DNA from: Chiloscyllium plagiosum
Lineage: Eukaryota
Direction: 5' to 3'
NCBI RefSeq assembly: GCF_004010195.1
Contig: NC_057749.1
Coordinates: 16,881,750-16,945,749 of the forward strand
Length of the DNA: 64,000 nt
The position numbers were made by a program, and so were the translations under genes. Position 1 is the first letter of the stretch. The number at the start of each line of letters is the position of its first letter. Under the pieces are notes generated by a model. That model saw only the letters and a program-made list of their open reading frames with translations. It was not told the DNA's origin and did not search any database. Of this stretch, positions 1,950-59,519 are shown in pieces.

Positions 1950-2156
1950 TGATGTGGAGGGGCTGGAGTTGGACTGGGGTGGACAAGTCAGAAGTCATAT
2001 GATACCAGGTTGGAGTCCAACAGGGTTATTTGAAATCACAAGCTTTCTGAACACTGCCCCTTTGTCAGGTGAAGTGCAGGGGCAGTGCTCCAAAAGCTTG
2101 TGATATCAAATAAACTTATTGGACTATAACCTGGTGTCACGTGACTTCTGACTTCA
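1950..2156. mobile_element. Penelope-derived fold-back element (family of 10729)
   Basis: Inverted arms aagtcagaagtca...aagcttt / aaagctt...tgacttctgactt; degenerate hammerhead halves at the centre. Confidence 0.6.
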
Positions 2157-6849: not shown

Positions 6850-7272
6850 CCTCTGCCCAACAGACTGGCGCTCCCTCAGAACTGACCCTCCGACAGTTCG
6901 GCACTCCCTCAGCACTGACCGTCTGACAGTTCGGCACTCCCTCAGCACTGACCCTCCGACAGTGCGGCACTCCCTCAGCAATGACCCTCTGACGTGTGGC
7001 ACTCCCTCAGCACCAACCCTTCGACAGTGCGGCACTCCCTCAGTACTGTGCCTCCGATAGTCTGGCCCTCTCTCAGCACCAATCCTCCAACAGTGCGGCA
7101 CTCCCTCAGCACCAACCCTTCGACAGTGCGGCACTCCCTCAGCACAGACCCTCTGTCAGTGTGGCGCTCCCTCAGCGCTGACCTTCCAACAGTGTGGTGC
7201 TCCCTCAGCACCGGCCCTCTGACAGTGCGGTGCTCCCTCAGCACCGAAACTCTGACATTGTGGCACTCCCTC
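6850..7272. repeat. 33-bp minisatellite (ctccctcagcactgaccctccgacagtgcggca)n, ~12-13 units
   Basis: Direct tandem repeat; source of the periodic ORFs in both strands. Confidence 0.95.
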
Positions 7273-10728: not shown

Positions 10729-10930
10729 TTTGGAGATGTAGGTATTGGACTGTGGTGTACAAAATTAAAAATCACACAACACCAAGTTATAGTCCCACAG
10801 ATTTATTTGGAAGCACTAGCTGTTGGAGTGTTGTTCCTTCTGATGAACCACCTGATGAAGGAGCGGCGCTCCAAAAGCTAGTGCTTCCAATTAAACCTGT
10901 TGGATTATAGCCTGGTGTTGTGTGATTTTT
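10729..10930. mobile_element. Penelope-derived fold-back element in the putative 3' UTR
   Basis: ~73-bp inverted arms 10768-10840 and 10857-10929; hammerhead motif in the right arm. Confidence 0.7.
10849..10883 (+). ncRNA. Hammerhead motif with one core mutation (GAAA to AAAA)
   Basis: CAC CUGAUGA A GGAGC-GGC-GCUCC AAA AGCU A^ GUG: stem I CAC/GUG, palindromic AGCU. Confidence 0.55.
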
Positions 10931-11075
10931 ATCTTAAACACTTCATGATTTTAGTTAAGTCATATTTCAGAGAATGAAACAGTGCACTGGGATCTGCTCT
11001 AGTCTGGTCAGACAAGGCTTTCCTTAGTCCCAAAGCATTGTGAACAGAGACAGATGAAAGATAAGGCTTGGGAAT

Positions 11076-11081
11076 TTTATT
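11076..11081 (-). promoter_or_regulatory. Candidate proximal polyadenylation signal AATAAA
   Basis: tttatt on + strand ~2.85 kb past the stop codon. Confidence 0.4.
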
Positions 11082-13931
11082 AAAGTCATGAGTGGGGTAA
11101 TAGTTCAAATGTACTCCCTACTGACAAAAAATATTTAAAAACCTTTTGTAAGAAAACACAAATGATAAAATATAGATGTTATAAGCATTTATACAACTGA
11201 ATTAAACCAGCACCAAAAACAAATTGGATGATTTTAAACAGACCATAAAACCTACTCTACATCTCAGGAGGACTAGACCCTAAAATTGGGTCCACTGTGT
11301 TCTATTTTAAACAGGAGGCTGGAATATCCTGGCTCTGCACATTAATAAATAGACAGCTCTTTTCAAGATTTTAACAAACACACTTTTCTCCCCTGCAGCA
11401 AAACCCAGTTTATAAAATTTAACCAAACAGAATTTTGAATATTTGACATATCTGTACATTTAATTGCTGAAATAAACACAGTAAAAGGCTGGGAATACAG
11501 GTCAGTGAGAATCTAAAGGTAAGACAGTTCAGTATTCCTCATGAAAGGTTCCTTTGGCCACTAAACAAGTCACTTCACATTTACAGAATGTGATTGATCA
11601 AATTGTTAACCCCAACATATTCTGCTTTGAACTCAGGACATTGAACACATACTGTAAAATGATACATGGAGTTCAATGATTTCAATGTGAAGCCTGTTCC
11701 ACTATTGTATCAATATTTCTTGTTTCACTCTTGTCTTGAGATGTAGGAGTTCTAGAGAGGGATAGAACTGTCTCTTTCTCGTGATCATTTCATGAAATGT
11801 TGGTTTCCAGACTATTAAAGGGAAAATAACTGTTGCAATGTCAAGGATGAGATGACGGTCTGAAACTGGAGGAAGAGGCGACCCTGTGTTCAGGTCCAAG
11901 ACTATGAGACAGAGACACTTTCACTCAGTATGAGAGACTTCAGGAGTTTGAGTGGCCATTAGAATTAGAAACGTAGAGGTGAAACTTTGTCTGGAGTCTC
12001 TCTGAATCAGTGCTGGGGGTGAAAGGACAACAATGACACATTAGTGTCTAGTGCTGATACTTCTGAAAATACAATCCAACAAAACAGTGTGTGTAGTGCA
12101 ATGACAGCAGAATTCTGATGTGCAATGAATTTGCCCACTGACATCCTCCAATCGATTGCGTCTTCAAAATGAGTCAAGACAGAGTACACCGAGGTGCAGG
12201 TTCATGATAAGCTCACATAAAATTTGTTTAAAGAAAAACAAATGCTTTATAAACCATGAGAGGCGAGATGGTTTACATGGAGCGGTATTAGAACTTTGTT
12301 TGTTGGTAGGGCTCCTGCTCTCAGCAAGAATCAAACACACATTTCCTCAGGTGAGTTGAGACTGAATACATTTCACTCTCTTTTCCAACAATAAATCTGC
12401 ATTTCAGCTTAACCTGGTACCTAATCCGGAGGGAGGTTCACCTCCAATCTTTCAGCATTTCACAAGCAGTGTTCTAGCCTCTCAAACCCTGAGCCGTAAC
12501 TATCTGCCATTCTATTAACATTCAAATTCTGTGGGTAAGGCCTACAATTGCTGAGCACAGTGCACTTCCAGCTCCAGCTTCCAGCTGCAAGGTACAAAGG
12601 AACAATCAATTCTCTCCAAAGACAACTGCCAGATTGTAATTCTCTGTCTATTAAGGCATTCAGTGGGTGTGTTAACCTCACAGTATAGCAATTTAAAGCT
12701 ACAGCTTTTCACCATTCTGATATCAGAAACTCTGATTATATATTATTTAAATCCCATCCCACACAACTGAATATTTGCCTTGTGAAAAGAATTATAAATT
12801 ATATTTATAATTAAAAAAAGAGAGGGGTCACAGCTGCCTGTTGCACTAGCCTCCACTAGACAGAAGAAAGGAAATTGGGTTCTGAAATGACGACTTATTT
12901 CACTACAATTCAGCTTCTTTAAACTCTTACATTTTATAACATATTTAGAACTGCAGAAACTGCTTTCCTTCACAAATTAATGTGCACTTAGTTTTCGAGA
13001 ATGAAAATTGCAATGGATAATGTTACAGATTAGCCAGAGAGGTCAGTGCCTACACCCCAACCTGGTCCCAAACACCACGTGACTGTTTCTCCTGGTCCCA
13101 GTGGGTCAAGTAGAAATTCAATCCACATCAAATATCAACTTTCTATGAGGCAAAGCATCAGGTACTCATTTTAATGATCTCCTTGCTGCCTGAAGGTGCA
13201 GACTTACGCTGGTGACTAGACTGTCAATTGGCCTCTGCTGCTTTCTTCATGTCTTACCCAATGCGCGGATGATGTTTCCACCAAAAAAGTCGAGAGTGGA
13301 TCAGACTCACCCCAATCTGTGAAGATTCCAGCAGGGGTGAGGGGTTTTGGCCGATTTCTCACCCTTCAGCCCACAGAACGCTATGGCACGGAGTACTGAC
13401 CAAATTGCTGTCCCAGCTAAGAGCAGCTCACAGCCCAGAGCATGACCAGGACCTGCTGGAGTACATTACGCCACACCACAAACAGCAACAAGTGTGGAAA
13501 CAATGCCAAAGAATTCCATATCTTAATAGAGGCTTCAATTAGCTGTAGTGGTTTAGATTTAAAGACTAAAAAGAATAACATTTTACAAAATGCAAATTTT
13601 CTGGTTTTGATGTGAAAAGCTAAGATTTGAAATTTGTAAACAATTTGCATTACATCTATTTAAGTTAAATACAGTACAATCATGTGCCCTGTGATGGGGT
13701 GGTTATTGTCTGGCAATGGTCAGCTTAAATTGAAAAATATTTCAACCTTAACTCAGCTAAACATACACAGAAATGAATACAGTTAAAAACCAAAAGCAGT
13801 GACTAGTTCTTTAATCATTAAAAAAATAAGTCTTGTAGCCCATGTGCCATTCTGTAAGTGCTCTCCTTCACTCTGTAGTGTCCAGATATATTCTCTTCCG
13901 CCATCATCCCCAAAGTTACAAGTTGGGGCAG

Positions 13932-14140
13932 TTACACTCTGTCCGTCCTGAATGTATCTTCGATCGTGGGGTCAGCCAGAACCAGATCCGGATCACTGAG
14001 CATGCTCAGTCCATCTAGGCTAAGTGGTTCGATTTTTAACTCGTCATCCAGTTGGAACTGGCCATCGGTGTCAAAGGTCATGTCTGGGACACCAGCCAGA
14101 GCACTGCTGATATCCTTGCACAGGCTAGGTGGAGAATCCC
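13932..14140 (-). CDS. CRTC3: CRTC3 last coding exon, (G)[68 protein letters not shown]
   Basis: ctccag acceptor; TAA at 13934-13932; CRTC C-terminal transactivation domain. Confidence 0.95.
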
Positions 14141-20100: not shown

Positions 20101-23100
20101 TACTCAATGTTTGATCCAATGACTACACTTACAGTGGGAGAGTGCAGTTCGATTGCTGATTGCTGAGAGAGGTGATGAAGAGGAGACACTGGTGACTGTC
20201 CCTGTGGGTGCTGCACTTTGTGTTGAGTTTGGTGCAGTTGTTGATAGAGGGGATAAGGCGGTAGGTGTTCCATGGTCATGTTACTTGTATCCAAGGCAAC
20301 CCCCTGTGAACCAAAAGGCAGAATTAAACTATGTTGAGAGCGGAAATGACTGCCTTCTCTCCTAGTCCCTGGTTGGGCAAGCTAGACACAGCATCACTTG
20401 GTGCAGCTCAAACAAAAAAAAAGCATCAGCCCTGAACATGTGCATCATGTTTTGTGATTTCTGCTTCTGAACATTTGTTTTCCTCCCAAACTGCAGCTCT
20501 TTTAAATGGGAACGATGTATTTTGCCACATCCTGTCCAGCTGGGAGCTCAGTGTCAAGACAGGCCTGGTACAGCGTTCCCGATCCAGCACTGCACCAGAA
20601 AACCGGTGCCTCCCTGCTCAACATTTCACAGAAGAAGAAACTGCAAGGAAAGTGGCAACAGCAAAGTAGCATTTAAATCTTGCACAGTTTAAGTACGATC
20701 CACATGGCTTTTCATCTGAAAGCCCTGTCTGTGGAAATTGGCTGCACTGCATATGTTTGCATTATACCAAGTTCCACCAAACGGCCAATGAAACCTGCTG
20801 CACAGAACCGGTTTCCTGGCTACACCTCCATTTTACCAACTGCTCCTGCAAAGTGTGTCTACATTTGTTAAGAGTTTGGTATAAGCAACTACTGGCTCTG
20901 ATGGTCAAGGCTAAATTAACAAAAACGGGCACTACTTAGATACGTGGTGCCGACTAGTTTAATGCCTGTTAGTTATCAGCAGCAGGAAGCCCGTTTTATC
21001 TTTAATTCTTCCATGGCATATAGGTGTCACTGGTTTGGCCAGCATTTATTGACCATTCCTAATGAGTTAATAGTGAACCACATTACGGTGGGTCTGTAGT
21101 CACACGTAGGACAGACCAGGTAACAATGACAGATTTTCTTCCCTAAAGGACATAAATGAACTAGATGGATTTTTATGACAACTAACAGTGGTTTCATTTG
21201 ACTGTCACTTCCAGATTTTTATCGAATTCAAGTTCCACTACTTGCCATGATGAGATTCAAACCCAGGCTCCAACAACATTATCTGAGTCTCTGGATTAAT
21301 AATCTAATGGTAATACTGCTAGAGCCATCGCTTCCCAGGGTACTGAGTTCAGTGGAACGATACCAGCTCCTGCTGCCAAAATCAGGCAACCTGGCACAGA
21401 CTCATGAACTGATCCATTCTGGTCTATGAGACTTTAACAATATACCAAAGCTGCTCCGTTATCACTAATAGGGAAGCAAAGTAATGTAACTGCATCCCTC
21501 CCGGCCACCGGAAACCCATTTAAGGACCTTCCATCACACGTACTTGTGCTATCGACGATAGCGTTGGTGACATGGTTGGTGAGAACTGTTTACTCATGGA
21601 CCTTCGAGGCTCCATTCCTGGCGAGAGTGTTAGCGGACTGACCGGTGTCTGCCGTCGGCGTGGCGAACTCTTCAAGGCGGTTGGGATGGACGGGTTGCTT
21701 AGCGATGACCGTAGTGAGGAGTGGATGGAGGGGTTGCTGAGGGAGTGATTGTTTAAAGGAGACTGCAGCATGGAGTTGCTGAGTGAAGCCTGTATTGATG
21801 GGTTACTCAGAGAGCTGTGCAAAGACGTGGAGAAACCTAGAAAAATAGAGAGAAGAAAGAAATCAAAAACGGAAATGTTCTTGATGGTAATCCCAGGAGA
21901 AAGTGAGGACTGCAGATGCTGGAGATCAGAGTCGAAGAGTCTGGTGCTGGAAAAGCACAACAGGTCAGGCAGCATCTGAGGAGGAGAATCGACATTTCAG
22001 GCATAAGCCCTTCATTCCTGATGCTGTGCTTTTCCAGCACCACACTCTTGATTGATGATAATCCCACCCACATGTGGAATGCATTACCTGGGAGGGAAGT
22101 GGGAACAATTCCATACCAACTTTCAAAAGGGAAGTGCGTGAATATTTATGAAGAAACATTCCGTAGGGTTATAGGGAAAGATTGGTAGAGCAGCAGGTTT
22201 AATTGGAAACATCAATCAAAGGACATAGGCCCAATGGGCTGATTGGCCTTCTCCAGTGCACTGTAATTCTATCAATTTCAATAAATATAGTTACACAAGA
22301 CCAAGGCATCTACATTAACTCATCAGTGACTTGGTAAACGTATTGTCAATGTATAATTAAACTGTACACACTCGAAGGTTTAGGCTGACTCTTCAGTATG
22401 TGTTGAATTAACTGCCAAGAGGGGTATGGATCATCCATTTCACCATTCGGGAGCTCCCAATGGGAGGGCAATGGGAAATCTCCCAGGGTTCCTACCTCAA
22501 TGCTGGGTAATGCGGGTTTGTGGTCCTCAGGCAGGGCTGTGATATCTTCCACAGTCATAGTCTCTCACTCATGGAGCTCAGGTGAGGTTTTTAACACGCA
22601 GGTTCAGTTGGCAGTTAGGAAGGCAAATGCAATGTTAGCATTCACTTCAAGAGAGCTAGAATACAACAGCAGGGATGTACTGCTGAGGGTCTATAAGACA
22701 CTGGTTAAACCGCATTGGGAATATTGGGAATAGTTTTTGGCCCCGTATCTAAGGAAAGATGTGCTGGCTTTGGAGGGGATCCAGATGAGGTTTACAAGAA
22801 TGATCCCAATGATGAAAGGCTTAACATGAGGGGTGGTTGAGGACTCTGGATCTATACTCTGTGGAGTTTAGAAGGATGAGGAGGGGATCTAATTAAAGCT
22901 TACAGAATACTGAGAGACCTGGACAGTTTGGGCGTGGAGAAGATTTTTCTGCTCGGCCAAACTAGGATCTGAGGGGCACAGCCTTAGAGTGAAAGGACAA
23001 CTCTTTAGAATTGAGCTGAGGAGGAATTTCTTCAGTGAATCTATGGAACTCATTGCTGCAGTGGGCTGTGCAGATCACGTCATTGAGTGCATTTAAGACA

Positions 23101-31086: not shown

Positions 31087-31126
<40 letters not shown>

Positions 31127-43100: not shown

Positions 43101-46100
43101 CTTGGAGATGTGGTTTGATGGAATTTTGTGTTGAAAGTGCAGCTAAAGTCAATAAAAATGAGTCTGACGTAGGTGTTCTTATGATCTAGATGTCCCAGCG
43201 ATATGCGTACAACCTGGAAGATGGTGTCTGCCCTGGACCTATTATGACAATAGCTGAATTGTAAAGGACCAAAGCAATCTGGGGTACTGGAGTTGCCGTG
43301 TGCCATTGCTAACACCTCGAAGCACTTCATAATGATGTGTGTTAGAGTCACCGGGGAGTAGTCATTGAAGTACGATGCTTCATTTTCCTTTGGCACTAGG
43401 TTGTTAGTGGTCTTCTTGAAGCAGTTGGATACCTCACATTGTAGTAAGGACAGGTTAAAGATGTCTGTAGGTCTGGGCAGGATTTGAGTGCACAGCTGTC
43501 ACTCCATCTGGGTCAGTTGCATTCAGTGGGTTCACCCTCAAGAAAGCCGATCTAACGTCTGCAGCAGTGACTGTGGGTACAGGTGTACTCAAGGCTACTG
43601 GAACAGGCAACATCATGAAGCATCACAGTCCATGCGTAGCTAGACCCAGTGCGCTGTTAGGGACAGGAAGGTTTCACAAGTTTGACCAGTGACAGTGGAA
43701 GAACACCGATACATTTCCAAGTCAGGATGGTGTTGGACTTGAGAAGAACTCAGAGTGAATTTAGTTGAGACCACAGACAATAGCTGAGGCCTAACCTCCT
43801 ATGAAAAACAGTTGACTGCTTTACAATTGAGTGCAAGGATTAGGGAGATTCAGCCTTTGTATAAAAAATGTTGGACAAATGTTTTGTTTTGTTCTCTGAA
43901 CACAAAGCGATGATGTGAGTCATGTTGAACTGCGTCACAGGAGCGAATTTAAATTCAGCTCTTGGAAGTAATTCTTCTGCAAAAGGTGACAAATGAACGA
44001 TGCATGTGACAAAAAATCCATGAAAGCTCGATTTTTAAAAACTTACTCACTGCAATATCCATAACTCTAGACCCTATATATATATTTGGTTTGGCACTTT
44101 CTCTTAATATATGGTCTTGGCGCATAAGTGATCTCCTCTGTTTTATCCCAGTCTCCGACAACTGCAACTGTTGATGGAATTTATGAATAAATGCCACAGC
44201 AAGCAAGGCAGGAAATGTGGATTAATCATTCCTCGCCAAGAGATGTTGAAGACAAGGAACAGAGAGAATTAAATAGCTTCAGAATCTACAAAACAGTTTT
44301 CATCTATGAAACGCCGAGTCAAATACTGCACACACACAGCTTGAATGGCAAAGCTCAGAAGTTAACAAAAATAGGGTAGATAACAGATACTTCATATTGC
44401 ACTGCATTTACAGAAACCTTAGTTCCTTGAAAATATATTTCTGAGCAAAGGTAAACAGTGAGACGCTGCCTTGCAGGAAATATTGCATCAACATTACTGA
44501 GTGACTTCAGCTACATAGTAAATCACCAATTAGTGAACTTGACTCATTTTCTCCTTTATTCCTCTACAGACAGAGACACAAACCACATTCTGAAACATCC
44601 TTTGAGATATGTCGGTTTTAATGGGACCAGTGCACAGTCACTGTAACAACTTTAGAGTAAGCGGCTTATTTAAACACTGCCTCCAAAATTTATTTCAAAT
44701 TTAGGTGTCTTTTTTCTGTTGAGATTAAATAATGGGATGTTCATGTCTCTCTGTGATACCGTCAGTTTTGCACATGCCAAGAATCTGATCCCAAAGTTCA
44801 ACTTGTCTTCTAATAGCTCATATATAAACAAGTCCCTGCTCTGGCCCCCACACCCACTCACAACACAAGCTAAAAGGCCTCAATACTTCTGTCTTTCCAA
44901 AGTAAAGAAGTGAACAGTATTTTTTAAAACCACATATCAACAACTGCACCAATGCTTGAAAATTGAATGGACTGAGCATGTTGCAATAATATAATAAATA
45001 CCAGACAATTCACTTTTCAACTGAGAGAGATGCACTCCCCACTATAGTACTAGAGCTACCCAAGCATGGGAAGATCTAACTTGATTTCCATTTGTACCAA
45101 TGTAAGCGAGGCTGCCCTAACTGGTCCAGAGGTTTGTCAATCAAAGAGCTTGCCCCTCAACACGAGAGGAAGTCTTGCCTTCAATCCTTAATAAGATCCC
45201 AGTGATTCCTTTGCTCGAGAACAGGACTGGGGCATTGACTCCGGGAAACACTGAGCTTGACCAAATTGTTCTTCCATATTCAAACCTCTTGCTAAAGTAG
45301 GGAGGGCTGCTCATCGACCAACTGTAGCGGGAGACACATGAAGAGGTGGGCAGTACTGGGGATAACAAAAGGAGAGAAAACCTTGCTCAGTCTTACTTCT
45401 GAATTCAGTCAAACAATTGTGGGTGCAGATTTGAGCCTGGTTCAGTAACTCATTGTCCTAAACTGTAGGATCAGAAATGTACGATGAACTCAAGGGGATT
45501 GAGTGGGGAAACCCAGAAAGAAAGATAGATCTGCACTGCTATATTTTCTAATCAACCTGTTCAGGGATGATGTTACACACCTCTGGAGCAGGTGGGACAT
45601 GAACCCAGGTCTCTTGGCTCAGAGATAGGGGCGCTACCACTAAAGCACCTTTCATAACCACAGCATGTTCAAAGCACTTTCCAGCCAATATTTTATGAAG
45701 TGAAGTCAATGCTGTGATGCAGAAGATGCAGGATCCAAATTATACACAGCAGGCTTCCACAAACAGGAAAGTCATAATGAAGAGATAATCCATTTCAAGA
45801 GTTGGCCAAGAGATAAAAAAATATTCACCCAGGACACTAGAATTCTTCTGTTCTTCTTGGAAATACTGGCCATGGGATCCATTTTACTTTCCTTTACTTT
45901 AATACTTCATCCAAAAGATGGCATTTTGGAGGCCTATCCCAGTGCTGCACTGCTAGTGACAGAGACAAAAACAAAAGCAGATACTGGAACCCAAAGTAGA
46001 TAAGCAGGAGGCGAGAAGAACGCAGCAAGCCAGGCCGCATCAGGAGGTGGAGAAGGCAATGTTTCTGGTGTAACCCTTCTTCAGGACTGGGGGTGGGTGT

Positions 46101-49100: not shown

Positions 49101-52100
49101 TTTCAAGGTCTCTTTCTTCAGCACCACTCCCTATGACCTTACCATTAAGTGTATAAGTCCTGCTAAGATTTGCTTTCCCAAAATGCAGCACCTCGCATTT
49201 ATCTGAATTAAACTCCATCTGCACTTCTCAGCCAATTGGCCCATCTGGTCTAGATCCTGTTGTAATCTGAGGTAACCTCCTTCTCTGTCCACTATACCTC
49301 CAATTTTGGTGTCGTCTGCAAACTTACTAACTGTACCTCTTATGCTCGCATCCAAATCATTTATATAAATGACAAAAAGTAGAGGACCCAGCACCAATCC
49401 TTGTGGCACTCCAGTGGTCACAGGCCTTCAGTCTTAAAAACAACCCTCCACCACCACCCTCGGTCTTCTACCTTTGAGCCAGTTCTGTATCCAAATGGCT
49501 AGTTCTCCCTGTATTCCGTGAGATCTAAGCTTGCTAATCAGTGTCCCATGGGGAACCTTGTCGAACGCCTTACTGAAGTCCATATAGATTACATCTATTG
49601 CTCTGCCCACGCAAAAAGCCATGTTGACTATTCCTAATCAGTCCTATCAATACCTCTCCACTTCCAATGCGCCAGTGAAAAACATTCCAGTCTATTTTTA
49701 TATCTGAAAATGTCCATTCTTTCCAGTTTAATAATATCAGTCTTATAACAGGGTAGCTAGAACTACACACAGTACTCCAAAAGTGACCCCAATATCCTGC
49801 ACAACATCAACATGACGTCCCAATTCCTACATTTAATGATCTGAACAATGAAAGGCAAGCGTGCTAAATGCTCTCTTAACCACACTGTCTGCCTGCAATA
49901 TGTATTATTCTTTTGATAAAAATGCACTAGTTCACACGACCAACACTGCAATTAATTTGTCGCACTGTAATGGGAGTTTAGATATCAAGCTCCCTTCCTT
50001 GATTGAAACAGGTGCCAGTGCATGAAGCACCAGATTTACAACTATATGATACAAACTGTAACCTCACAAGTGGCCACAGTGAGACTTGAACTCAACCACA
50101 CAGTCCTTGGTTCATGACCATAAGCCATGCTTGTATCTGTGAAAAGCATTAGGAAGGCTGATTTCCCTGGGATAGTATCACCTTGCTCGGCCCAGACCAT
50201 GCATTAAAACCCTTCGTAACCACCCCATCCCCAAAAACACATTCTTGCTGCTCAGTGTGAATCAGGAGAGTGATGTCTTTGCCTCATCTAGGGCAACCTG
50301 TGTTAACAGTAGGTCATTAAATAGAAGCTGATGAAAATGTCAAAATTGCCAGACACATGGTGGTTAATTTAGAAACATCACAAGGCACTGAACTGACAGT
50401 CAATCACCAAATCCGACAGCAGAGTATCAGAAAATCTGAATCATTTTCACACCATTGAGGTGATAATATTCGATTCCGGTTACCATCCCCAACCAAACAG
50501 GAAATGCCACTTGACAATATTTCAGCAGTCACACAGCTCACACGTGCAACACAAAAATATCCCATTTCTTACTGTTAAAAAAAATCATAATATCAAAGTT
50601 CAAAGTTTGTGAGAAGATTTGTAGCTCGGGTGCTCGTTGCTGTGGTTCTGTTTGCCGAGCTGGAAGTTTTTGTTGCAAACGTTTCGTCCCGTCTAGGTGA
50701 CATCCTCAGTGCTTGGGAGCCTCCTGTGAAGCGCTTCTGTGGTGTTTCCTCCGGCATTTATAGTGGTTTGTCCCTGCCGCTTCCGGTTGTCAGTTTCAGC
50801 TGTTCGCTGTAGTGGCCGGTATATTGGGTCCAGGTCTATGTGTTTGTTGATGGAGTTTGTGGATGAGTGCCATGCTTCTAGGAATTCCCTGGCTGTTCTT
50901 TGTTTCGCTTGCCCTATAATGGTAGTGTTGTCCCAGTCAAATTCATGTTGCTTGTCGTCTGCGTGTGTGGCTACTAGGGATAGCTGGTCGTGTCAAAGTG
51001 CCTTTTCAATAACAAACAGGTAAACTGTAAGTCCTCTGTGGATGTTGGTAAGCTAAGGGAAGAGGTCAGCTAGCATTCCTGTTTCTGCTAGGCAAGTATG
51101 CACAAACAGTCACACGAGGTCAGGACAGCATGATACCTCCATCATCAGACTGTACACACTTTCCAGCTGTAGTTGATAAACACTGACTGTATGTAACACC
51201 TGATTTTCTCTCTTCACAGATGCTGAGGCCTACAGTTGCTTGACAGTGGCTAACTAATGTAGAAGTGTTCCGGAATAGTACCTGCTGCTCTCCGGGCAGT
51301 GCACTTCCTACTGCTAAAATTATCTTGAGGTGCAGATAGGACAACAGAGCATTCTCTTCAGACAGTGCATGAAACATTCTTTATAAAGGGGTCTTGGCTC
51401 AGTGAGTCAGCACTCCTGCCTCCGTGGCAGACAGCAGTGGATTAAAATCCCAATCCAGACATTTCAACTGCACAAATAAGGTTGACATTTCAGTGCGGTC
51501 TTGAGGGAACACTACATTGCCAAGAATGTCATCTCTCAGAACCTGCCTGTCCTCTCAAGTAGAAGGAAATAATCCCATGGCACTATTTCAAAGAAGAATG
51601 GGGGAACGCTCCCTGGAATCATGGTCAGAATGCATCTTTTTTAATAACAACTTGCTGTTTGTGAGAGCTTTGTGTGTGCAAATTGTTGCACATTCCTTAT
51701 GTTATAACAGTGATGATACTTCATCGGTGCTTTTAGAATCAGAGATTCATAAAATCCCTACAGTGTGAAGGTAGGCCATTCGGCCCATCGAGTCCACACT
51801 GAACCGGCGAAGAGCATCCTATCCACCTACCCTATTCCTGTATTTCCATGGGTGACCCACATACCTGTACATCCCTGATCACTGCAGGCAATTGAGCGTG
51901 GCCAGTCCACCTAACCTGCACACCTTTGGACTGTGGGAGGAAACTGGAGCATTTGGAGAAAACTCACGCAGACATGGGGAGAACATACAAGCTCCACTAA
52001 GATGGAAGCTGGAATCGAACCTGGGGTGCTGCTGTGAGGCAGTATTGCTAACACTGAGCCACCGTGCTGATTAACTGGTTGCAAAATGCTTTGAAATATC

Positions 52101-55100
52101 CCAAGATTTGCAAATGCAAAACCTTTCTTTTAAAGATAATAGATTCAGTGTTTGACCAGAGAAAACAACGATGTGATGTAGTGGATATTCCCAGAGCTCC
52201 AAAACTCTACTTAAAAATGTGGTTAATTTCTTACCAAACCCGTTAAACTGTAGATTGTTATTAAGTATGCAGTGTAAAATATCTCACTCACAGGCAGCTG
52301 GAAGCACATGCATTTCAACACAGAAAGAACAATAGACCTCTCCCCTGTTAAACAGCTTCTCTTCTGAATTGGAAGTTCCTGGAGAACCTCAGCAGGTCTG
52401 GTAGCATCTGTGAAAGAGAAATCAAAGTTAATGTTTCAGGTTGAGAAGGGTCTGAGGAGGGGGGTCACCTGACCTGAAACATTAGCTTTGATTTCTTTTC
52501 ACAGATGCTGCCAGACCTGCTGAGGTTCTCCAGCAACTTGTTTTTCTTTCTGATTTACAGCAGCCACAGTTCTTTTGGTTTCACTTCTGAATCATGTCAG
52601 TTTTCCCTCAATTATTTCTGTATCACAGGTTTCAGTGATTAAAACTTATTGCACTTTAGAAATTCAATGAACTAATGCCAGAGATTAAATGGCTAAGGTT
52701 ACAGCAGTCAAACCCACAATTCGCAATTTCATGCTAATAGTTTCAACAAAGTTACAGAGCACGGAATTAGTTATGGACAGCTTAGATGTGAAACATCCAG
52801 ATCAAGAAATCAAAAACAGAAACTGCTGGAAAAGCTCAGCAGGTCTGGCAGCATCTGTGGAGAGAAATTGTGACAAGCTCAGAGGAAGGGTCATTCGACC
52901 CGAAACTTTAACTCTGATTTCTCTCTGCAGATGCTGTCAGACCTGCTGAGCTTTTCCAGCAATTTCTACTTTTGTTTCTGACTTACAGTATCCCGCAGTC
53001 TTTTACTCAGATCAGGAAGTCTCTGGTTCAGAGCTTAACTGGGTAGCAAAGGATGTGAGAAAGTAAAATTTCAACCCCTGAAGTCATGAGCTAAATGTGT
53101 GGGTTTCAAGTAGGAGGTTAAAACTGTGATGCTACTGACCAGGTGATGAGCCAAGTCTGGAAAGTGGAATTCCTGTTGACTTAGCAGATTTGTAAGCACA
53201 GACTTGATGGGTTGAAGAGCATCTTCTGTATTATCTGATTCTATGCATGACACACTAACAGGCCAGAAAAAGACTTTTGAATAGAGATCTTTAACATTTA
53301 CTCGACAGCCAAATCAGGTTTCAACCATCATTTGAAAGAGGACAGCTCTGACAATGCGGCACACACTCAGTACTGTCCAGCCTTAACTGCAACATCAGGT
53401 CTGGGAGTAGGACTGAACCTTCTCACTCAAGAGGCAGGGGGGACCACACCAATGAGGGGGGGGGAAGCTGGTACCTCAAATTCTGTAGCAGTTAGATTAG
53501 ATTAGATTCTCAACAGTGTGAAAACAGGCCCCTCGGCCCAACAAGTCCACACCGCCCCTCCGAAGAGAAACCCGCCCAAACCCATTGCCCTACCCGATAT
53601 TTACCCTTGACTAACACACCTAACACTGTGGGCAATTTAGCATGGCCAATTCACCTAACCTGCACATCTTTGGATTGTGGGGGGAAACTGGAGCACTTGG
53701 AGGAAACCCACACAGACACGGGGAGAATGTGCAAACTCCACACAGACAAGCGGGAATTGAACCCAGGACTCTGGTGCTGTGATTTAGATCAGGTTTTGCT
53801 CACAAACAAGTTTTTAGCCTTTCAAACTACGGTAAACAACAAACTATTTAATCACATACGCTATAGTTCACTTCAAAAATGGTTTTAGCTCCACTCTTTG
53901 ACTTTGTTTACTGGATTAGTCCATACCAAGAATTACTGGAAAAACCTGCTTTGAAGGCTGGGTTAAGAGTACATTTTAGCACAAAGACAGAAGAGGAAGA
54001 AAGAATCCAATGCAATTCAAGATACAGCAGCTCAAATGACACCAAGATTGAGTTCTAAAAGGCTGTGGATTGTGAGCTAAAGGGGAAAGTGTGAATAAGC
54101 GAGGAGTTCCTCAGGTTTAAGTATCTGGATAAGATGAATGAAAGCAGGAGACAGAGCACCAAGCTGTGAATTTCTTTTCTTTATTCTTTCGTGGATGCTG
54201 CCCATCCTTATTTGCCCTTAATGGCTTGCTTGGTGAGTTCTGAAAGCTACAGGAGTCAATGCTACTGCTGTTGGTCTGGAGTCATTGTCGGCCAGACTGG
54301 GTAAGGATAGCAGATTTCTTTCCTGTAAATAACATTAATAAACTAGATGGGTATTTAAGAACACGGTCACCATCACTGAGACTAGCTTTTTAATTTCAGA
54401 CTTCCATTAATTTAGTTTCAAATCTACCAGAAGCCATCATGGGATTGGAAAGCATATCCTTAGAGCTCAGTTTGGGTCTCTGGATTACCAGTTCACTGTC
54501 GTTACCACTACGTTGCAATGTCCCATTACTTATGTGTGAAGATGGAGGAGGAAGTCACTGATTGCTGTCATGCAGGAGGTAGTCATTTAGCCTACTGTAT
54601 CCACATTGGCTCTCTGAGCATTTTGTCTAAGTGCTGAACTCCTACCTTTCTCCCTGCACATTGGATGGTTATTTGGATAGAAACAATGTTTTCTTGAATG
54701 CCTTAATTGAATGTGCCTCCACGGGTTTTCCAGGCAATGCATTCCAAACTTGGATCACTCCTGGGAAAATATGACTACAAAAGTCAGTAGTCCCTCTAAT
54801 TTATTTTCCAGGGTGCGGACCTCCAAGGTCCACGTGCAGTAGCAACTTCTGAAATCAGAAGCCAGTGCAATGGCACATCTCTCACCCAGTGCAAGAACTC
54901 AGAAGAACCTTCAAGTAGCTGGGTAGCTCAGGGGGAACACAGATAACTATAACTGAGAGGAATGACAGAGAATGAGAGTTCAGCAAAATTTTTTTAAAAA
55001 TCATGTCGTAAGTAGCAAAGGGGCCAAGACTGACTGCCAGGGGGTCAGTTTTGACTTGAGTCATATGACTTTAGACAAATTAAATGGTTATGCTCAATTA

Positions 55101-56205
55101 CATCATAACCAAAGACTATGGTTCATCTCAGTATCCATTCAAGATTTCTACGCTCCTCGAGTTCTGGTCTCTTGTCCTTCACTCAACAAGTCAATAATGA
55201 TCTTGCCTTCAGTAGCCTTGTCTCTAAATTCTGGAGTTGCATCCTTCAACTTCTCACCTTCTCTTGTTCTTTAAGACATTCCTTGAAATCTACCTTGAAT
55301 GAAACGTGGGGCATAATATTCTGTTAAAGGGTCAACATTAGTCCAACAAGTTGTTGTTGATCCACACTCTTTACTAACAATAAACCTAGCTGAAAATGTG
55401 TTGCTGGAAAAGCACAGCAGGTCAGGCAGCATCCAAGGAGCAGGAGAATCGACGTTTCGGGCATGAGCCCTTCTCCTGCTCCTTGGATGCTGCCTGACCT
55501 GCTCGCTTTTCCAGCAACACATTTTCAGCTCTGATCTCCAGCATCAGCAGTCCTCACTTTCTCCTAACAATAAACCTAGGCAGGTTTCAGTAGAAAACTG
55601 TAACTTCACAAGATTCCTTTTCCTTCATCATCACCTTCTTCTTTGCAGAACTATGACTAATGACTTTCATTTCAACCTGTTTCTTACACTGGCTAGTGAA
55701 CTGGATAATATCCTTGAATTGTCAAGTAACATACTGCTGTTGCTGAGTGCGCTTGGTTTGGTTGTACAAATGTACAATAGAAAAGATCAGGCTTCTGCTT
55801 GTACCTCCGCAAACTGCTCCCACTGCCATCACTGGCAGTAACAGCACTATAACCCTGAGCACTGCATTCCTCTGTTATACAGCCCACAATGCTCTATATA
55901 AATACAACCCAAACCAGTAATTGGAAGGATAGGTAATTTCATGCAAATCCTTTAAAACAGCTGAAAAAAAGGTTTTGCAGGTCTAACATCATTCTTTACT
56001 AAAACCAAAAATGAAATTCTACAAATATAACGCAGGACTGGGAAGGGAGGGGAATACAGGCAAAGGATATCTGTCGGCCATGTTTATCCATTGCAGGCTG
56101 GCGTCGGCGAGGTGATATCATGTGACTCCGGTCTCTGTGAACCCTCTCCACCAAACCGTGATGCCGTGTTCCTCGTGTAGAATCCAGAGTGGGATGGAAT
56201 GACAT
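13932..56205 (-). CDS. CRTC3: CREB-regulated transcription coactivator 3 (CRTC3/TORC3), partial spliced CDS, 13 coding exons (probably exons 3-15); 5' exons outside the window
   Basis: Exons join in phase: 135+62+66+104+36+86+50+218+293+171+84+202+209 = 1716 nt. CRTC family motifs: [33 protein letters not shown]-terminal acidic TAD ending [13 protein letters not shown]3-type segments, compared with human CRTC3 from memory: [44 protein letters not shown]. Family certain; paralog call by recalled similarity. Confidence 0.9.
14916..15117 (-). CDS. CRTC3: CRTC3 coding exon (probable exon 14), 202 nt, [10 protein letters not shown]...GNIPNIILT(G)
   Basis: ctcccacag acceptor, gtgag donor; LEQFNM and IPNIILT motifs. 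Confidence 0.94.
15385..15810 (+). mobile_element. Deu-domain SINE (SacSINE1/AmnSINE-like); related decayed copies near 29650-30030(-), 34480-34790(-), 45650-45960(-), 51390-51720(+), 63200-63420(-), 63815-64000(+)
   Basis: tRNA-like head gtggctcagtg plus ggatgtaaaagatcccatggca...gggaagttatccctggtgtcctggacaat, matching the Deu core as I recall it. Confidence 0.65.
17212..17295 (-). CDS. CRTC3: CRTC3 coding exon (probable exon 13), 84 nt, [28 protein letters not shown]
   Basis: tttaacag acceptor, gtatgg donor, phase 0/0; resembles the CRTC segment that precedes LEQFNM. Confidence 0.82.
19015..19362 (-). mobile_element. HE1-like V-SINE
   Basis: Same head, V-domain and tail on the minus strand. 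Confidence 0.82.
19495..19710 (+). mobile_element. HE1-like V-SINE, 3' half
   Basis: aaagatgtgtaagttagggtgg...ccacactgttgggattctatgattctat. Confidence 0.72.
20133..20303 (-). CDS. CRTC3: CRTC3 coding exon (probable exon 12), 171 nt, [22 protein letters not shown]...LHSPT
   Basis: ttcacag acceptor, gtaagt donor, phase 0/0; GVxLDTS...LPPYP as in CRTC proteins. Confidence 0.9.
21000..21335 (-). mobile_element. Third SINE family (tRNA-like head, tail ...aataaatgctggcc); copies also near 26600-26950(+), 46800-47015(-), 54180-54520(-), 62380-62710(-)
   Basis: Shared block aaccacatt..tgggtctg(g)agtcaca..tagg(c)cagacc..gtaagga..cagatttcttccctaaagg in several copies; family name not assigned. Confidence 0.6.
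21544..21836 (-). CDS. CRTC3: CRTC3 coding exon (probable exon 11), 293 nt, (G)[15 protein letters not shown]...[15 protein letters not shown]...SPTLSSIAQ
   Basis: tttttctag acceptor, gtacgt donor; in frame with ORF 21520..21975; SLSNPS repeats. Confidence 0.94.
21896..22052. mobile_element. Penelope-derived fold-back element
   Basis: Same sequence family as the pLTR at 33440-33532; inverted arms; near-perfect 14-bp direct repeat tgatg(g/a)taatccca on both sides. Confidence 0.75.
22585..23245 (+). mobile_element. CR1 LINE 3' fragment
   Basis: [40 protein letters not shown]1-type 3' end. Confidence 0.85.
23681..23898 (-). CDS. CRTC3: CRTC3 coding exon (probable exon 10), 218 nt, IYPSPEQ...[27 protein letters not shown]...[10 protein letters not shown]
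   Basis: ccttcaag acceptor, gtgag donor; second SIK site NTGGSLPDL; overlaps ORF 23649..23867. Confidence 0.95.
24760..25060 (+). mobile_element. HE1-like V-SINE
   Basis: ggtggctcagtggttagcact head; V-domain; gattctat tail. Confidence 0.82.
25130..25770 (-). mobile_element. Degraded CR1 RT fragment
   Basis: [10 protein letters not shown]...[11 protein letters not shown] (ORF 25559..25741). Confidence 0.7.
25868..25917 (-). CDS. CRTC3: CRTC3 coding exon (probable exon 9), 50 nt, [16 protein letters not shown](S)
   Basis: ttcctcag acceptor, gtgagt donor; [15 protein letters not shown] motif. Confidence 0.93.
27362..27447 (-). CDS. CRTC3: CRTC3 coding exon (probable exon 8), 86 nt, (V)[28 protein letters not shown]
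   Basis: tttttattcag acceptor, gtgagt donor; KPLPKQLWE motif. Confidence 0.92.
28547..28582 (-). CDS. CRTC3: CRTC3 micro-exon (probable exon 7), 36 nt, (V)[11 protein letters not shown]
   Basis: ttctacag acceptor, gtgagt donor, phase 1/1; resembles CRTC3 GFCDGENNGHGE. Confidence 0.8.
29483..29586 (-). CDS. CRTC3: CRTC3 coding exon (probable exon 6), 104 nt, (R)[34 protein letters not shown]
   Basis: tag acceptor, gtgag donor; contains the SIK/AMPK 14-3-3 site RTNSDSAL. Confidence 0.94.
30700..30910. mobile_element. Older Penelope-derived fold-back element
   Basis: Ends ccagcatctgcagtatttt; degenerate hammerhead (gagtc-atattg-gatc gaaa). Confidence 0.5.
31092..31166. repeat. (GA)n microsatellite
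   Basis: Direct observation. Confidence 0.95.
31215..32270 (+). mobile_element. CR1 LINE RT plus 3' fragment
   Basis: [37 protein letters not shown]; 3' tail ctctatga. Confidence 0.9.
32293..32358 (-). CDS. CRTC3: CRTC3 coding exon (probable exon 5), 66 nt, (R)[21 protein letters not shown](R)
   Basis: Pyrimidine tract plus aag acceptor, gtgac donor, phase 2/2; resembles human CRTC3 PPWKDEKHPGFRLTSALNR. Confidence 0.85.
32753..33532 (+). mobile_element. 5'-truncated Penelope-like element (Neptune-like): Cys-rich linker, GIY-YIG endonuclease and pLTR tail
   Basis: Translation CNRKKCKT...[26 protein letters not shown]...ERFREHL, then frameshifted HFNSPSH...[20 protein letters not shown]. 11-bp direct repeat caagttatcag at 32742-32752 and 33533-33543. 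Confidence 0.88.
33442..33473 (+). ncRNA. Minimal hammerhead ribozyme motif, intact core, in Neptune-like pLTR
   Basis: UC CUGAAGA A GGGC-UCAU-GCCC GAA ACGU C^ GA; stem I only 2 bp. Confidence 0.68.
33795..34060. repeat. Degenerate ~69-bp tandem repeat (ctgtatctaacccc..tgtccctgtcctgggagtgtttgatggggacagtgtagagggagctttact)
   Basis: 3-4 imperfect units. Confidence 0.75.
35101..35535. repeat. 23-bp minisatellite (gtgagatgcaggaagagtgaacc)n, ~19 units
   Basis: Highly homogeneous tandem array. Confidence 0.95.
37205..37314 (+). mobile_element. Short (~110 bp) tRNA-derived SINE-like repeat; second copy at 45541-45645(-)
   Basis: tggtagtgtccctacc...ggttcaagtcccacctgctccagag...tgaactggttgattaggaaaata; reverse complement at 45541. 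Confidence 0.6.
38023..38182. mobile_element. Penelope-derived fold-back element with 15-bp TSD
   Basis: Direct repeat caacaggtttgagca at 38008-38022 and 38183-38197; inverted arms; hammerhead motif. Confidence 0.85.
38054..38085 (+). ncRNA. Minimal hammerhead ribozyme motif, intact core
   Basis: UC CUGAAGA A GGGC-UUAU-GCCC GAA ACGU C^ GA. Confidence 0.65.
39653..39714 (-). CDS. CRTC3: CRTC3 coding exon (probable exon 4), 62 nt, [20 protein letters not shown](R)
   Basis: Preceded by U12 branch site TCCTTAAC and AC acceptor; gtaag donor; CRTC YLSPPP..SWRR motif. Confidence 0.93.
41146..41305. mobile_element. Penelope-derived fold-back element
   Basis: gaggaccgcagatgctgg...cgacgtttcgagcataagctcttcatcagg...ttttccagcacc; same family as 21896 and 38023. 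Confidence 0.72.
41241..41272 (-). ncRNA. Minimal hammerhead ribozyme motif, intact core
   Basis: UC CUGAUGA A GAGC-UUAU-GCUC GAA ACGU C^ GA; stem II shows a compensatory G-C to A-U change relative to the 33442 copy. Confidence 0.68.
41725..43480 (-). mobile_element. Rex1/Babar-like LINE RT plus 3' end, interrupted by a V-SINE
   Basis: [17 protein letters not shown]...[10 protein letters not shown]...[61 protein letters not shown]. Confidence 0.8.
41809..42131 (+). mobile_element. HE1-like V-SINE inserted in the Rex1/Babar-like LINE
   Basis: Full length, with duplicated ggcggcacagtgg head; gtaagtaatctaat tail. Confidence 0.88.
45965..46392. mobile_element. Penelope-derived fold-back element with internal ~27-bp tandem repeat
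   Basis: Arms caggaggc..gaagaacgcagcaagccagg..catcaggaggtggagaaggc / gccttctccacctcccgatg..cctgggttgctgtgttcttc..gcctcctg; tandem ccctttataaccaccctgcccc at ~46185-46315. Confidence 0.65.
48345..49895 (-). mobile_element. Nested CR1 fragments (younger copy 48672-49640 inside an older copy), spanning the assembly gap
   Basis: [38 protein letters not shown]...KFADDTK; two CR1 3' tails (~48345, ~48672). Confidence 0.85.
48772..49071. other. Assembly gap (300 N)
   Basis: Run of n inside a CR1 copy. Confidence 0.99.
50600..50992 (-). mobile_element. 3' fragment of a second Penelope-like family (Poseidon-like): GIY-YIG C-terminus plus pLTR
   Basis: Minus-strand translation [58 protein letters not shown], followed by a hammerhead motif. 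Confidence 0.82.
50675..50712 (-). ncRNA. Minimal type I hammerhead ribozyme motif, intact core, in Penelope pLTR
   Basis: GCA CUGAGGA U GUC-A-CC-UAGAC-GG-GAC GAA ACGU U^ UGC: stem I GCA/UGC, stem II, palindromic stem III ACGU. Activity untested. Confidence 0.75.
51745..52068 (-). mobile_element. HE1-like V-SINE
   Basis: Head, V-domain and tail on the minus strand. Confidence 0.8.
52368..52582. mobile_element. Penelope-derived fold-back element
   Basis: Long inverted arms ctggagaacctcagcaggtctgg..atctgtgaaa / tttcacagatgctgccagacctgctgaggttctccag; central CTGAGGA..GGTCA-CC-TGACC..GAAA. Confidence 0.72.
52810..53003. mobile_element. Penelope-derived fold-back element
   Basis: Inverted arms around cAGAGGA A GGGTC-ATTC-GACCC GAAA (degenerate hammerhead). 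Confidence 0.72.
53492..53782 (-). mobile_element. HE1-like V-SINE
   Basis: (ttaga)n tail; V-domain. Confidence 0.85.
55390..55563. mobile_element. Penelope-derived fold-back element with 16-bp TSD
   Basis: Direct repeat ctaacaataaacctag at 55374-55389 and 55564-55579; near-perfect inverted arms. Confidence 0.85.
56071..56205 (-). CDS. CRTC3: CRTC3 coding exon (probable exon 3), 135 nt, [45 protein letters not shown]
   Basis: Pyrimidine tract plus cag acceptor; ends at U12 donor ATATCCTTT; phase 0/0; TRHHGLVER motif. Confidence 0.93.
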
Positions 56206-56894
56206 CTGAGGGTGGCATGAGAGAAAGAAAAAGAATTTTAAAATGCTGCCCACTATCATTCTACATTGATCAATAGGTTACTGTCAATTGCCTCCACGTC
56301 ACATTTAAAAGGACAAAATCCACTGTGTCTCCACAGGGAGTACAATGTGGATAGCAGCACATTGACAATATACTGACAACAGGTTAGTATATATCTGGAC
56401 ACAACACACACCATGTCATTTTATCATTACACAGGTGAAGTAATTCAATCACTGATCCATGCACAATCTGGATTTTATATGTTGCCTTCAACGTACTGAA
56501 GGATCTCAATGTGCTTCACAGGGACATAATTGGACATGATTTGACATCGATCCGTATGTGCAGGTATTAGATTAGGTGGTCAAACGATAGGTCAAAGACA
56601 TAGGTGTTAAGAAGTACCTCACACAGTGATAGCAAGGAAGAGAGGTTAGGGAAGGAATTCCCAAGATTATCACTTCTGCATCTTTTCTTCTGTTCTGGCC
56701 TGCCATCCCTATCTCCTTGTTTACTGACCCTTTTCATGTCTCTCTCTCTCTCTCTATCTCTGGGCTCCATTGCCACCCAACTGCTCACCTCTTCCTTTCC
56801 CTCTGCCCAACTTCAGCATAAAATACTACTTTTTTCTAGCTATTTATAGTTCTGATGAAGACTTGAAACATGAATTCTACTTTCTTCCCACAGA

Positions 56895-58350: not shown

Positions 58351-58718
58351 GATGCTGTCCGACCTGCTGAGTTTCTGTTTTTGTTTCAGATCTCCAGCAT
58401 CCATAGTTTCCTGTTTTGAGATTAGGACCGAGGCAGCTGAAGTCGCACTCACCAATAATGGGGAATTAAAATCAGTGATGCATAAGAAGTCAGATTTGGA
58501 GGCGAGATCTTGGAAGGTTCTCGCAGTGAAGAAGGTTGCAAAGATGTGGAGGTGAAATGACAAGAGAATTTGAAAGCAAGTGTAAGCAAGAAGAAGGAAT
58601 TCCAAAATGCTTTATTTATTCTCAGGGGAACAGACATCCCATCTGAGGAACTTTACCTCAGAGAGACTGCAGCCTGCAACAAAACACCCGCAGCAGCCAA
58701 GCCTGGAAAAGTTCAGTA

Positions 58719-59123
58719 GAAGGAGAAAGTGAGGACTGCAGATGCTGGAGATCAGAGCTGAAAATGTGTTGCTGGAAAAGCGCAGCAGGTCAGGCAGCAT
58801 CCAAGGAGCAGGGGAATTGACGTTTCGGGCATGAGCCCTTCTTCAGGATAGACCCAGGTTCAATTCCCGCCTCAGGCGACTCTCTGTGTGGAGTTTGCAC
58901 ATTCTCCCCGTGTCTGCGAGGATTTCCTCCGGGTGCTCAGATTTCCTCCCACAGTCCAAAAATGTGCAGGTTAGGTGAATTGGCCATGCTAAATTGCCCA
59001 TAGTGTTAGATGAAGGGGTAAATGTAGGGGAATGGGTCTGGGTGAGTTACGCTTCGGCGGGTCGTTGTGGACCTGTTGGGCCGAAGGGCCTGTTTCCACA
59101 CTGTAAGTAATCTAATTTTCAGC
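58719..59123. mobile_element. Composite: Penelope-derived left arm, 5'-truncated V-SINE, residual right-arm end
   Basis: pLTR arm 58721-58848, SINE ~58850-59116, then tttcagc; 11-bp direct repeat aaagttcagta at 58708-58718 and 59124-59134. Confidence 0.75.
58817..58848 (-). ncRNA. Hammerhead motif, core intact, stem I mismatched
   Basis: UC CUGAAGA A GGGC-UCAU-GCCC GAA ACGU C AA. Confidence 0.5.
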
Positions 59124-59346
59124 AAAGTTCAGTACAACCACAGATCAATCCAACACTGGATCATTTCTGGTACCAACCTCAGACTGATCATAAGGAGATC
59201 TTTTGATCTTTTGTCACGATACTGTGAAAAGATTCTCAACAACATTACTGAGCTCATCATTCTGGAACAGTTTATATATTAATGTCAAGTGATGGACTTA
59301 CTGTGCAGTCCTTTCAGTTGCTTCCCATTGGGTTATATGATTAGAT

Positions 59347-59519
59347 TCATGATTAGAAGCAGGAAAATTGATGTTTTGTATAGGAGCCCTTCCTGATGAA
59401 GGGTTCCTGCCCAAAACGTTGATTTTCCTGTCCCTCGGATGTTGCCTGACCTGCTCTGCATTTCCAGCACCACTCTAATCTTGTCTCTAACCTCTAGCAT
59501 CTGCAGCCCTCACTTTGGC
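59347..59519. mobile_element. Penelope-derived fold-back element
   Basis: Direct repeat ttatatgattagat at 59333-59346 and 59520-59533; hammerhead with GAAA to AAAA change. Confidence 0.7.

Follow-up and report, generated by a model that had tools for sequence, protein, structure and literature searches.

A 64,000-base stretch of contig NC_057749.1 of the shark Chiloscyllium plagiosum (the window, in which 300 bases, 48772-49071, are N) holds 13 copies or relics of one small RNA motif. These are very probably minimal type I hammerhead ribozymes (min-HHR) of Penelope-like retroelements (PLEs), forming the 3'-terminal module of mostly dead, 5'-truncated insertions. Three of the copies are intact, two near-intact and eight decayed, a total in line with the "about a dozen" of an earlier, sequence-only reading of this DNA. 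The layout described in that reading was present at each of the seven sites it named; as for their state of preservation, the copies at 33442, 38054 and 41241 are intact and those at 58817 and 50675 near-intact, whereas 10849 is without G12 and 52880 has a changed core. Hammerheads in PLEs have been known since 2014, and the window presents a new host for a known kind of motif.

Motif anatomy, genome-wide counts and families

The common layout starts with CUGANGA and a single additional base; stem II, GAAA, the palindrome CG or GC, U and H come next. The intact copy at 33441..33474 (+) serves as an example: helix I is UC/GA, CUGAAGA is followed by an extra A, stem II is GGGC/GCCC, and GAA, ACGU and C17 complete the motif, with a predicted cut at 33471|33472. 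The catalytic core (C3-U4-G5-A6-N7-G8-A9, G12-A13-A14, A15.1/U16.1, H17) is complete in five of the 13 copies (33444+, 38056+, 41270-, 58846- and 50709-) and broken in the other eight, for example by a G12 to A change at 10873 and 59413. Stem II is closed by G10.1-C11.1, and a single unpaired nucleotide separates A9 from G10.1: U in family B, A in families A, C and D (the families are described below). One extra base was found in 90 of 94 matches (84 A, 6 U) of a scan that itself demanded a paired stem II, and G10.1 was invariant across 11 representatives, eight of them picked by a pairing-demanding descriptor. There is no helix III hairpin; the preserved copies carry a self-complementary tetramer, which is AGCU in family D and ACGU in the other three. 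Contiguous helix I is 2 bp long in family A and 3 bp in families B and D.

Two descriptors were run on the window. The loose one (CUGANGA, 0-1 base, a stem II of at least 3 bp and GAA) found eight sites (33444+, 38056+, 41270-, 58846-, 50709-, 52452+, 49121- and 2187-), of which 49121- and 2187- are weak, likely chance matches and were set aside. The strict one further requires at least 4 bp of stem II and 2 bp of helix I, together with GAAA, a palindrome at 15.2-16.2, U and H; three matches were kept (33444+, 38056+ and 41270-), and none of 300 dinucleotide shuffles of the window yielded any. We then counted exact patterns across the 3.56-Gb genome with the reversed pattern as control. The family A motif with GGGC/GCCC has 88,166 matches (control 0), and the generic core has 168,415 with ACGU-H (control 1,637) and 52,077 with AGCU-H (control 277). 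Together the two generic patterns give ~220,000 cores (controls ~1,900), or one per ~16 kb. The control counts and the shuffles exclude chance matches, and the numbers bear out two earlier claims, that the genome is densely seeded with the motif and that stem III is self-complementary in the well-preserved copies, ACGU and AGCU both being in genome-wide excess over the controls.

Similarity searches gave the same picture of abundance. The family A element at 32747-33533 had 115,475 first-look candidates in the genome, 150 of which were scored (74-100% identity). A 151-nt family A query had at least 1,563 (40 scored, 96-100% identity), its 76-nt 3' part alone at least 1,008, and family B at least 1,236 (40 scored, 94-99% identity). 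The 96-100% identity, together with one species-specific insertion described below, shows that family A is young; most genomic copies are relics.

Self-comparison placed eight window loci (22013-, 33441+, 38053+, 41273-, 46092-, 55389-55565, 58848- and 59390+) in one repeat family, A, whose stem II is GGGC/GCCC, with subfamilies GAGC/GCUC and GGGU/ACCC. Family B, at 50596-50995, has GUC(A)CC/GGGAC. Family C, at 52373-52539 and 52807-53004, has GGGUC/GACCC and a 3' tail in common with A, and family D, at 10766-10931 and 1949-2137, has GGAGC/GCUCC; families B and D are unrelated in sequence. The C and D copies of the window are decayed, and intact relatives with the same tails are found in the flanks of genomic loci L044 (C) and L035 (D). 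The sequence-only reading had counted at least four families; A, B, C and D are indeed distinct, but four of its seven sites (33442, 38054, 58817 and 41241) all belong to family A.

That reading had also described the stems as covarying, which holds between subfamilies and between families. Between families, all stem II pairs differ except G10.1. Within family A, genome counts for the second stem II pair are 88,166 for G-C, 1,345 for the A.C mismatch (GAGC/GCCC), 1,103 for G.U (GGGC/GCUC) and 393 for the compensatory A-U (GAGC/GCUC). The odds ratio is ~23, with ~29 doubles expected from the margins against 393 counted, so that the compensatory variant is ~14-23 times commoner than independent decay predicts. 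The A-U double variant occurs mostly on one background, that of one subfamily, while the single variants are spread across the common backgrounds, as decay would give. Given that the copies are related by descent, the counts show amplification of a paired lineage, not many independent events.

The claim does not extend to the many single-sided changes in dead copies, which reflect CpG decay and not selection. Among 113 copies, 76 of them distinct, such changes fall mostly at C11.1-G12, C15.2-G16.2 and C17-G1.1, and we rejected them as covariation. CpG dinucleotides include catalytic G12, the palindrome of stem III and the first pair of helix I (10873, 59413, 58818 and the 22000 region), so dead copies lose the ribozyme first through CpG to TpG/CpA decay; this explains the loss of G12 in the copies at 10849 and 59390.

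Coding context and insertion architecture

The family A element at 32747..33533 (+) is a 5'-truncated PLE 3' fragment comprising a GIY-YIG remnant, ~200 nt of 3' untranslated region (UTR), the hammerhead at 33441-33474 and a short-form 3' end. Its coding part is frameshifted (frames at 32761-33138 and 32781-33287, +) and gives a GIY-YIG Pfam match with an E-value of 4.9e-4 and 20.8 bits, below the cut-off of 22.6; the hammerhead sits ~200 nt downstream of this open reading frame (ORF) remnant. The family B element at 50596..50995 (-), likewise a 5'-truncated PLE 3' fragment, contains an ORF at 50693-50992 and ends ~85 nt past the cut. This ORF has no Pfam match; it probably represents the C-terminal ~100 aa of a reverse transcriptase-endonuclease protein and is 93% identical to the C-terminal end of a predicted carpet-shark protein of 463 aa. 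In that protein there are a YVDD motif, an RVT_1 match (27.4 bits, against a cut-off of 29.6) and, seen by eye, a GIY-YIG-type motif with an embedded Cys pair. The near-intact family B hammerhead at 50675-50712 (-; predicted cut 50678|50677) has a bulged A in stem II because two bases are missing relative to the common genomic form. The stop codon of the ORF (50693-50695) lies inside hammerhead loop II, and the coding end abuts or overlaps the hammerhead in all four B-type loci having upstream sequence. The endonuclease motifs of A and B share 36% identity over 42 residues, indicating that they belong to two PLE lineages. The earlier claim that two copies lie downstream of GIY-YIG coding remnants is thereby upheld, and the claimed Penelope relation of the families gains coding context for A and B; for C and D it is the insertion architecture that suggests a PLE link.

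To describe that architecture we used the ends of 50 unique family A loci from the genome. At the 3' side the copies have a fixed end that comes in two forms, one of them 36 nt longer than the other. The hammerhead precedes this end by ~65 nt in the short form and by ~101 nt in the long form, which has the 36-nt tail, so that every copy longer than ~100-135 nt carries the hammerhead. Target duplications of ~11-16 bp surround the copies. Three classes were distinguished: copies running 5' into the PLE 3' UTR (11 of 50), solo units, and head-to-head pairs in which the inverted arm stops at the short form and the direct arm has the tail. In the window, head-to-head or inverted-arm structures are seen at 55389-55565, 38023-38182, 10766-10931 and 52373-52539. 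The hallmarks of PLE insertion are therefore present, namely strong 5' truncation, an adjacent inverted 5'-truncated copy, a tail at one end and variable target duplications.

The insertion at 38023..38182 (+), a young family A copy of 160 nt, shows this organization together with recent movement. A 30-nt inverted left arm (38023-38052) is followed by a direct unit with the long tail; the intact hammerhead lies at 38053..38086 (+; strict descriptor, predicted cut 38083|38084), and a 15-bp target duplication flanks the insertion (38008-38022 and 38183-38197). In a related species, a contig of 2,260 nt runs straight from 38007 to 38183, without the 160-nt insertion and one 15-bp duplication. This empty site indicates that the copy is a lineage-specific, recent insertion.

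These features match the hallmarks of PLE insertions given in the available part of Craig et al. (PMC8557442), who describe 5'-truncated insertions with an inverted, likewise 5'-truncated copy next to them and a tail of 30-40 bp that is often confined to one end. They also match the in vitro results of Frangieh et al. (2024, PMC11167929), in which reverse transcription started at two adjacent internal sites and both target strands were cleaved and extended. Extending this published PLE work to the shark, reverse transcription would start at two adjacent internal RNA sites, giving the optional tail, and priming from both target strands would give the head-to-head arms. Tandem or partial-tandem copies forming pseudo-long terminal repeats (pLTRs) were found neither in the window nor at three long copies, in which flank follows the tail; few loci were covered.

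Cleavage, 5' ends and alternative explanations

Published work on PLEs suggests how the motif may act. A hammerhead alone would not form helix III, and two copies would pair through ACGU or AGCU into a shared 4-bp helix III; dimer cleavage by minimal hammerheads is credited to Lunse, Weinberg & Breaker in the available part of PMC6765202. The dimer would cut after H17, a C in family A, a U in families B and C and an A in family D. According to the part of Cervera & De la Pena (2014, PMC4209133) available to us, PLE hammerheads cleave weakly in vitro, even as dimers. The motif of the Anolis carolinensis element cleaves once protein is added, with C3/G8 rescue, and this protein-assisted cleavage is dispensable for insertion in vitro (PMC11167929). 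Protein probably assists cleavage in the shark elements too, and the role of the ribozyme in the element cycle may be the processing of multi-copy transcripts. In cofold predictions the family A monomer keeps stem II.

Several observations weigh against reading the motifs as hammerheads of PLEs. Contiguous helix I is only 2-3 bp long, compared with the usual 4-5 bp in the accessible text of PMC4209133, where D. virilis has 2 bp. An Rfam scan of the window gave no match at gathering and no hammerhead family among 27 matches at E up to 10, so the identification rests on descriptor and anatomy, control counts and context, not on a curated model; the canonical type I, II and III models of Rfam have the same core and stem II, and the shark motif is without the helix III hairpin and helix I loop scored there. 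None of the 50 family A insertions begins within 5 nt of the cut site, and none of 30 begins at it in a sample chosen by the 3' part alone. The predicted dimer prefers to pair through a longer quasi-palindrome and not in the active register, which is not decisive, and no tandem or nearby same-strand pair able to dimerise in cis occurs within the window. No coding remnant was found in families C and D, and A and B are known here from 3' fragments, with reverse transcriptase (RT) and endonuclease in one ORF and the pLTR layout not directly seen.

RNA data add a further point on the same side. In a poly(A) single-cell run, of which ~2% was read and which is poorly suited to show molecule ends, there was no pile-up of ends and depth was continuous across 38083|38084. 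A total of 2,334 RNA reads matched the element only; both orientations occur among them and 96% continue into unlike flanks, indicating that they show embedded copies, not autonomous transcripts or ends. The absence of cut-site ends in the shark agrees with the anole study, in which no public reads end at the cut site (PMC11167929), and with the low in vitro activity given in PMC4209133 as far as it was available.

With these points in view, we weighed three other explanations. The motif may have been kept as a structured RNA signal, such as a fold that binds protein or serves in template recognition where the copied region begins, with cleavage incidental or vestigial. The lack of insertion 5' ends at the cut site and the unbroken RNA depth across it would fit such a signal, as would the anole element, whose core mutants leave in vitro insertion unchanged, and the success of hammerhead-less PLE clades, which proliferate well according to the part of Craig et al. 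consulted (PMC8557442). Yet where the four families agree despite their differing stems, it is at the catalytic positions (CUGANGA, GAA, A15.1/U16.1 and H17), and cleavage itself has been obtained, with protein and C3/G8 rescue in the anole and weakly with PLE dimers in vitro. We regard a purely structural signal as unlikely, if somewhat less so than the next explanation, in which the ~100-135 nt units are an independent non-autonomous element, retrozyme-like or SINE-like (short interspersed nuclear element), that parasitises the PLE machinery, rather than plain 5'-truncated PLE copies. Thousands of near-identical copies exist, 28 of 50 family A copies start in 400-408 (reference numbering), 15 of them at one base, and a 2026 preprint, available in part, derives animal retrozymes from PLE pLTRs, all of which speak for such an element. 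But the unit sequence is identical to the 3' end of coding copies, 11 of 50 copies extend into the PLE 3' UTR, the window has no tandem unit arrays, and no promoter-bearing head was seen; as the unit starts at its own 5' end it cannot carry an upstream promoter. An independent element is therefore doubtful.

Chance matches, or hairpin RNA genes such as microRNA (miRNA) precursors, can be dismissed with near certainty. Five sub-threshold Rfam matches in the window are miRNA-like (10804-10894, 46086-46272, 52823-52962, 55419-55500 and 61121-61220), but all lie far below gathering scores; those at 10804-10894, 52823-52962 and 55419-55500 are the inverted arms of head-to-head insertions, and 46086-46272 coincides with a tandem repeat of 29 nt. 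Chance is excluded by both kinds of control, the shuffles and the reversed patterns, and this explanation counts as refuted. The motifs are thus best read as hammerheads of PLEs, at the strength given at the outset.

The 5' ends of the insertions show a pattern of their own. The 28 clustered family A starts fall within a 9-nt span at the first bases of helix I, and the base shared by 15 of them corresponds to 33440-33441 in the window. AGG precedes 12 of these 15 starts, either as filler or as a very short inverted arm. In family D, at least five head-to-head pairs among the matches listed meet 8-15 nt apart at the ribozyme 5' edge. By eye, the start base lies in an initiator-like YYANWYY, with a T/A-rich stretch ~30 nt upstream. 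A tentative idea, to which we give little weight, is that the hammerhead marks the exact 5' end of a discrete template RNA. If so, a pLTR promoter with its start site at the helix I edge would fit, element RNAs would begin and end with a hammerhead, palindrome pairing could hold the RNA ends together, and short hammerhead-plus-tail RNAs would be the commonest product copied in trans. Alternatively, the cluster could arise if two cDNAs were joined where palindromes of the motif provide microhomology, or if the reverse transcriptase turned around; eight junctions are located inside stem II or beside it.

Other window copies, neighbouring repeats and known systems

The remaining family A copies differ in state and arrangement. 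An older subfamily insertion at 41146..41306 (-), with a short inverted left arm, carries the third intact hammerhead (41240-41273, -; strict descriptor, predicted cut 41243|41242), whose stem II is the compensatory GAGC/GCUC. The solo unit at 58721..58848 (-) starts at the hammerhead 5' edge; its near-intact hammerhead (58815-58848, -) retains the whole core and fails the strict helix I test, the first helix I pair being gone (G1.1 to A, 58818). A tRNA-related SINE-like sequence at 58849-58910 (box B-like, antisense to the hammerhead strand) adjoins the 5' end of this unit at 58848 and is probably a nested insertion. The insertion at 21895..22046 (-) has an inverted left arm, a ~15-bp target duplication and a hammerhead relic (21989-22021, -) with a changed core and CpG-decayed stems II and III. 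An old subfamily relic at 46015..46092 (-; hammerhead 46055-46087) is of the GGGU/ACCC type, with C11.1 changed to A and a non-palindromic stem III, and an intact relative is present in genomic locus L036. This relic adjoins a G/C-strand-biased 29-nt repeat (46086-46315), a long imperfect palindrome that is the source of the best, still sub-threshold, miRNA-like Rfam matches.

Two further family A insertions are paired or inverted. The head-to-head insertion at 55389..55565 (+), between target duplications at 55376-55388 and 55566-55578, has as left arm a reverse-complement copy ending at the short-form 3' end (55389-55473) and as right arm a direct copy cut off inside the unit, with the 36-nt tail (55474-55565); its partial hammerhead (55443-55473, -) is without C3-A6. 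The insertion at 59347..59519 (+) has an inverted left arm, a 14-bp target duplication (59333-59346 and 59520-59533) and a decayed hammerhead with G12 to A (59390-59423, +).

Both family C loci are inverted-arm insertions carrying relics. At 52373..52539 (+) the hammerhead (52449-52486, +) has an intact CUGAGGA core, stem II GGGUC/GACCU, a 3-nt spacer and a non-palindromic stem III; at 52807..53004 (+) the relic (52877-52912, +) keeps stem II GGGUC/GACCC, while its core (U4 to A) and stem III are broken. Family D is represented by a head-to-head insertion at 10766..10931 (+), whose relic (10849-10883, +) has helix I CAC/GUG, stem II GGAGC/GCUCC, stem III AGCU, H17 = A and the G12 to A change at 10873, and by a diverged, D-like inverted-arm relic at 1949..2137 (+; hammerhead ~2064-2102) with a decayed core and G12 to A.

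The window also contains repeats of other kinds. RT fragments of the long interspersed nuclear element (LINE) type, not Penelope-like, lie at 31282-32200 (+) and 49131-49951 (-). An RVT_1 match at 49131-49427 scores 36.5 bits, and the second fragment adjoins the gap of 300 N at 48772-49071. Arrays of a 33-nt tandem repeat occupy 6867-7273 (12 copies) and 8106-9021 (~29 copies), with 72-81% matches, and a 23-nt minisatellite lies at 35103-35535 (18.8 copies, 94% matches). A ~100-nt hairpin at 61121-61220 gives a sub-threshold mir-515-like match.

The closest known systems are the min-HHRs of PLEs described by Cervera & De la Pena. The portion of PMC4209133 on which we draw lists as their traits an additional nucleotide separating A9 from G10.1, pairing of G10.1 with C11.1, a palindrome at 15.2-16.2 and sequence families that show compensatory changes, and the shark motifs show all of these. 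They resemble the PLE min-HHRs also in being type I with a full core, in having no helix III or loop of their own, in their location at the element's repeat or 3' end, in the presence of several sequence families per genome, and in that most copies are single and in truncated elements. The host is a cartilaginous fish, compared with the bony fishes, coelacanth, Xenopus and reptiles named in that portion. No report from a shark appeared in the literature searched, which did not include the supplements of PMC4209133 with their species lists, where a shark entry is possible. The ~220,000 cores counted here compare with ~4,000 in coelacanth and ~9,000 in Xenopus given there, a rough comparison since the descriptors differ.

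The Poseidon element PAc of Anolis carolinensis studied by Frangieh et al. (PMC11167929) shares the arrangement of family A, with a hammerhead at a fixed distance upstream of two adjacent RT start sites. The optional tail is 30-40 nt in PAc and 36 nt in the shark, both-strand target priming in PAc fits the head-to-head arms, and in neither system have ends been seen at the cut site. The PAc ORF begins inside stem II. Loop II of family A (33456-33459 and 38068-38071) has an AUG at the corresponding place, with a frame that stops after 26 codons, inside the tail region, whereas in family B it is the end of the ORF and not its start that overlaps loop II.

Non-LTR retrozymes and amphibian satellites (Cervera & De la Pena 2020, PMC7229834, available in part) are likewise type I with a weak helix III, dimer action, very high copy number and a proposed link to PLE pLTRs. 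Retrozymes are described there as 170-400 nt tandem repeats with canonical loop-loop contacts and circular RNAs. The shark units, unlike these, are dispersed singles or inverted pairs with target duplications and have no loop 1, and Tandem Repeats Finder detected no array at any hammerhead site in the window. The same text gives 126,247 canonical type I hammerhead motifs for axolotl (~28 Gb), a number exceeded by the ~220,000 in the 3.56-Gb shark genome, although differing descriptors make this comparison, too, a rough one.

The main value of the present data is confirmation and scale. The genome-wide counts amount to a simple population-style test of stem II pairing, and the location of 5' ends at the ribozyme 5' edge, not at the cut site, constrains any model of the role of the ribozyme. 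After the in vitro work of 2024, the young family A offers many natural variants for asking what the ribozyme does for its element.

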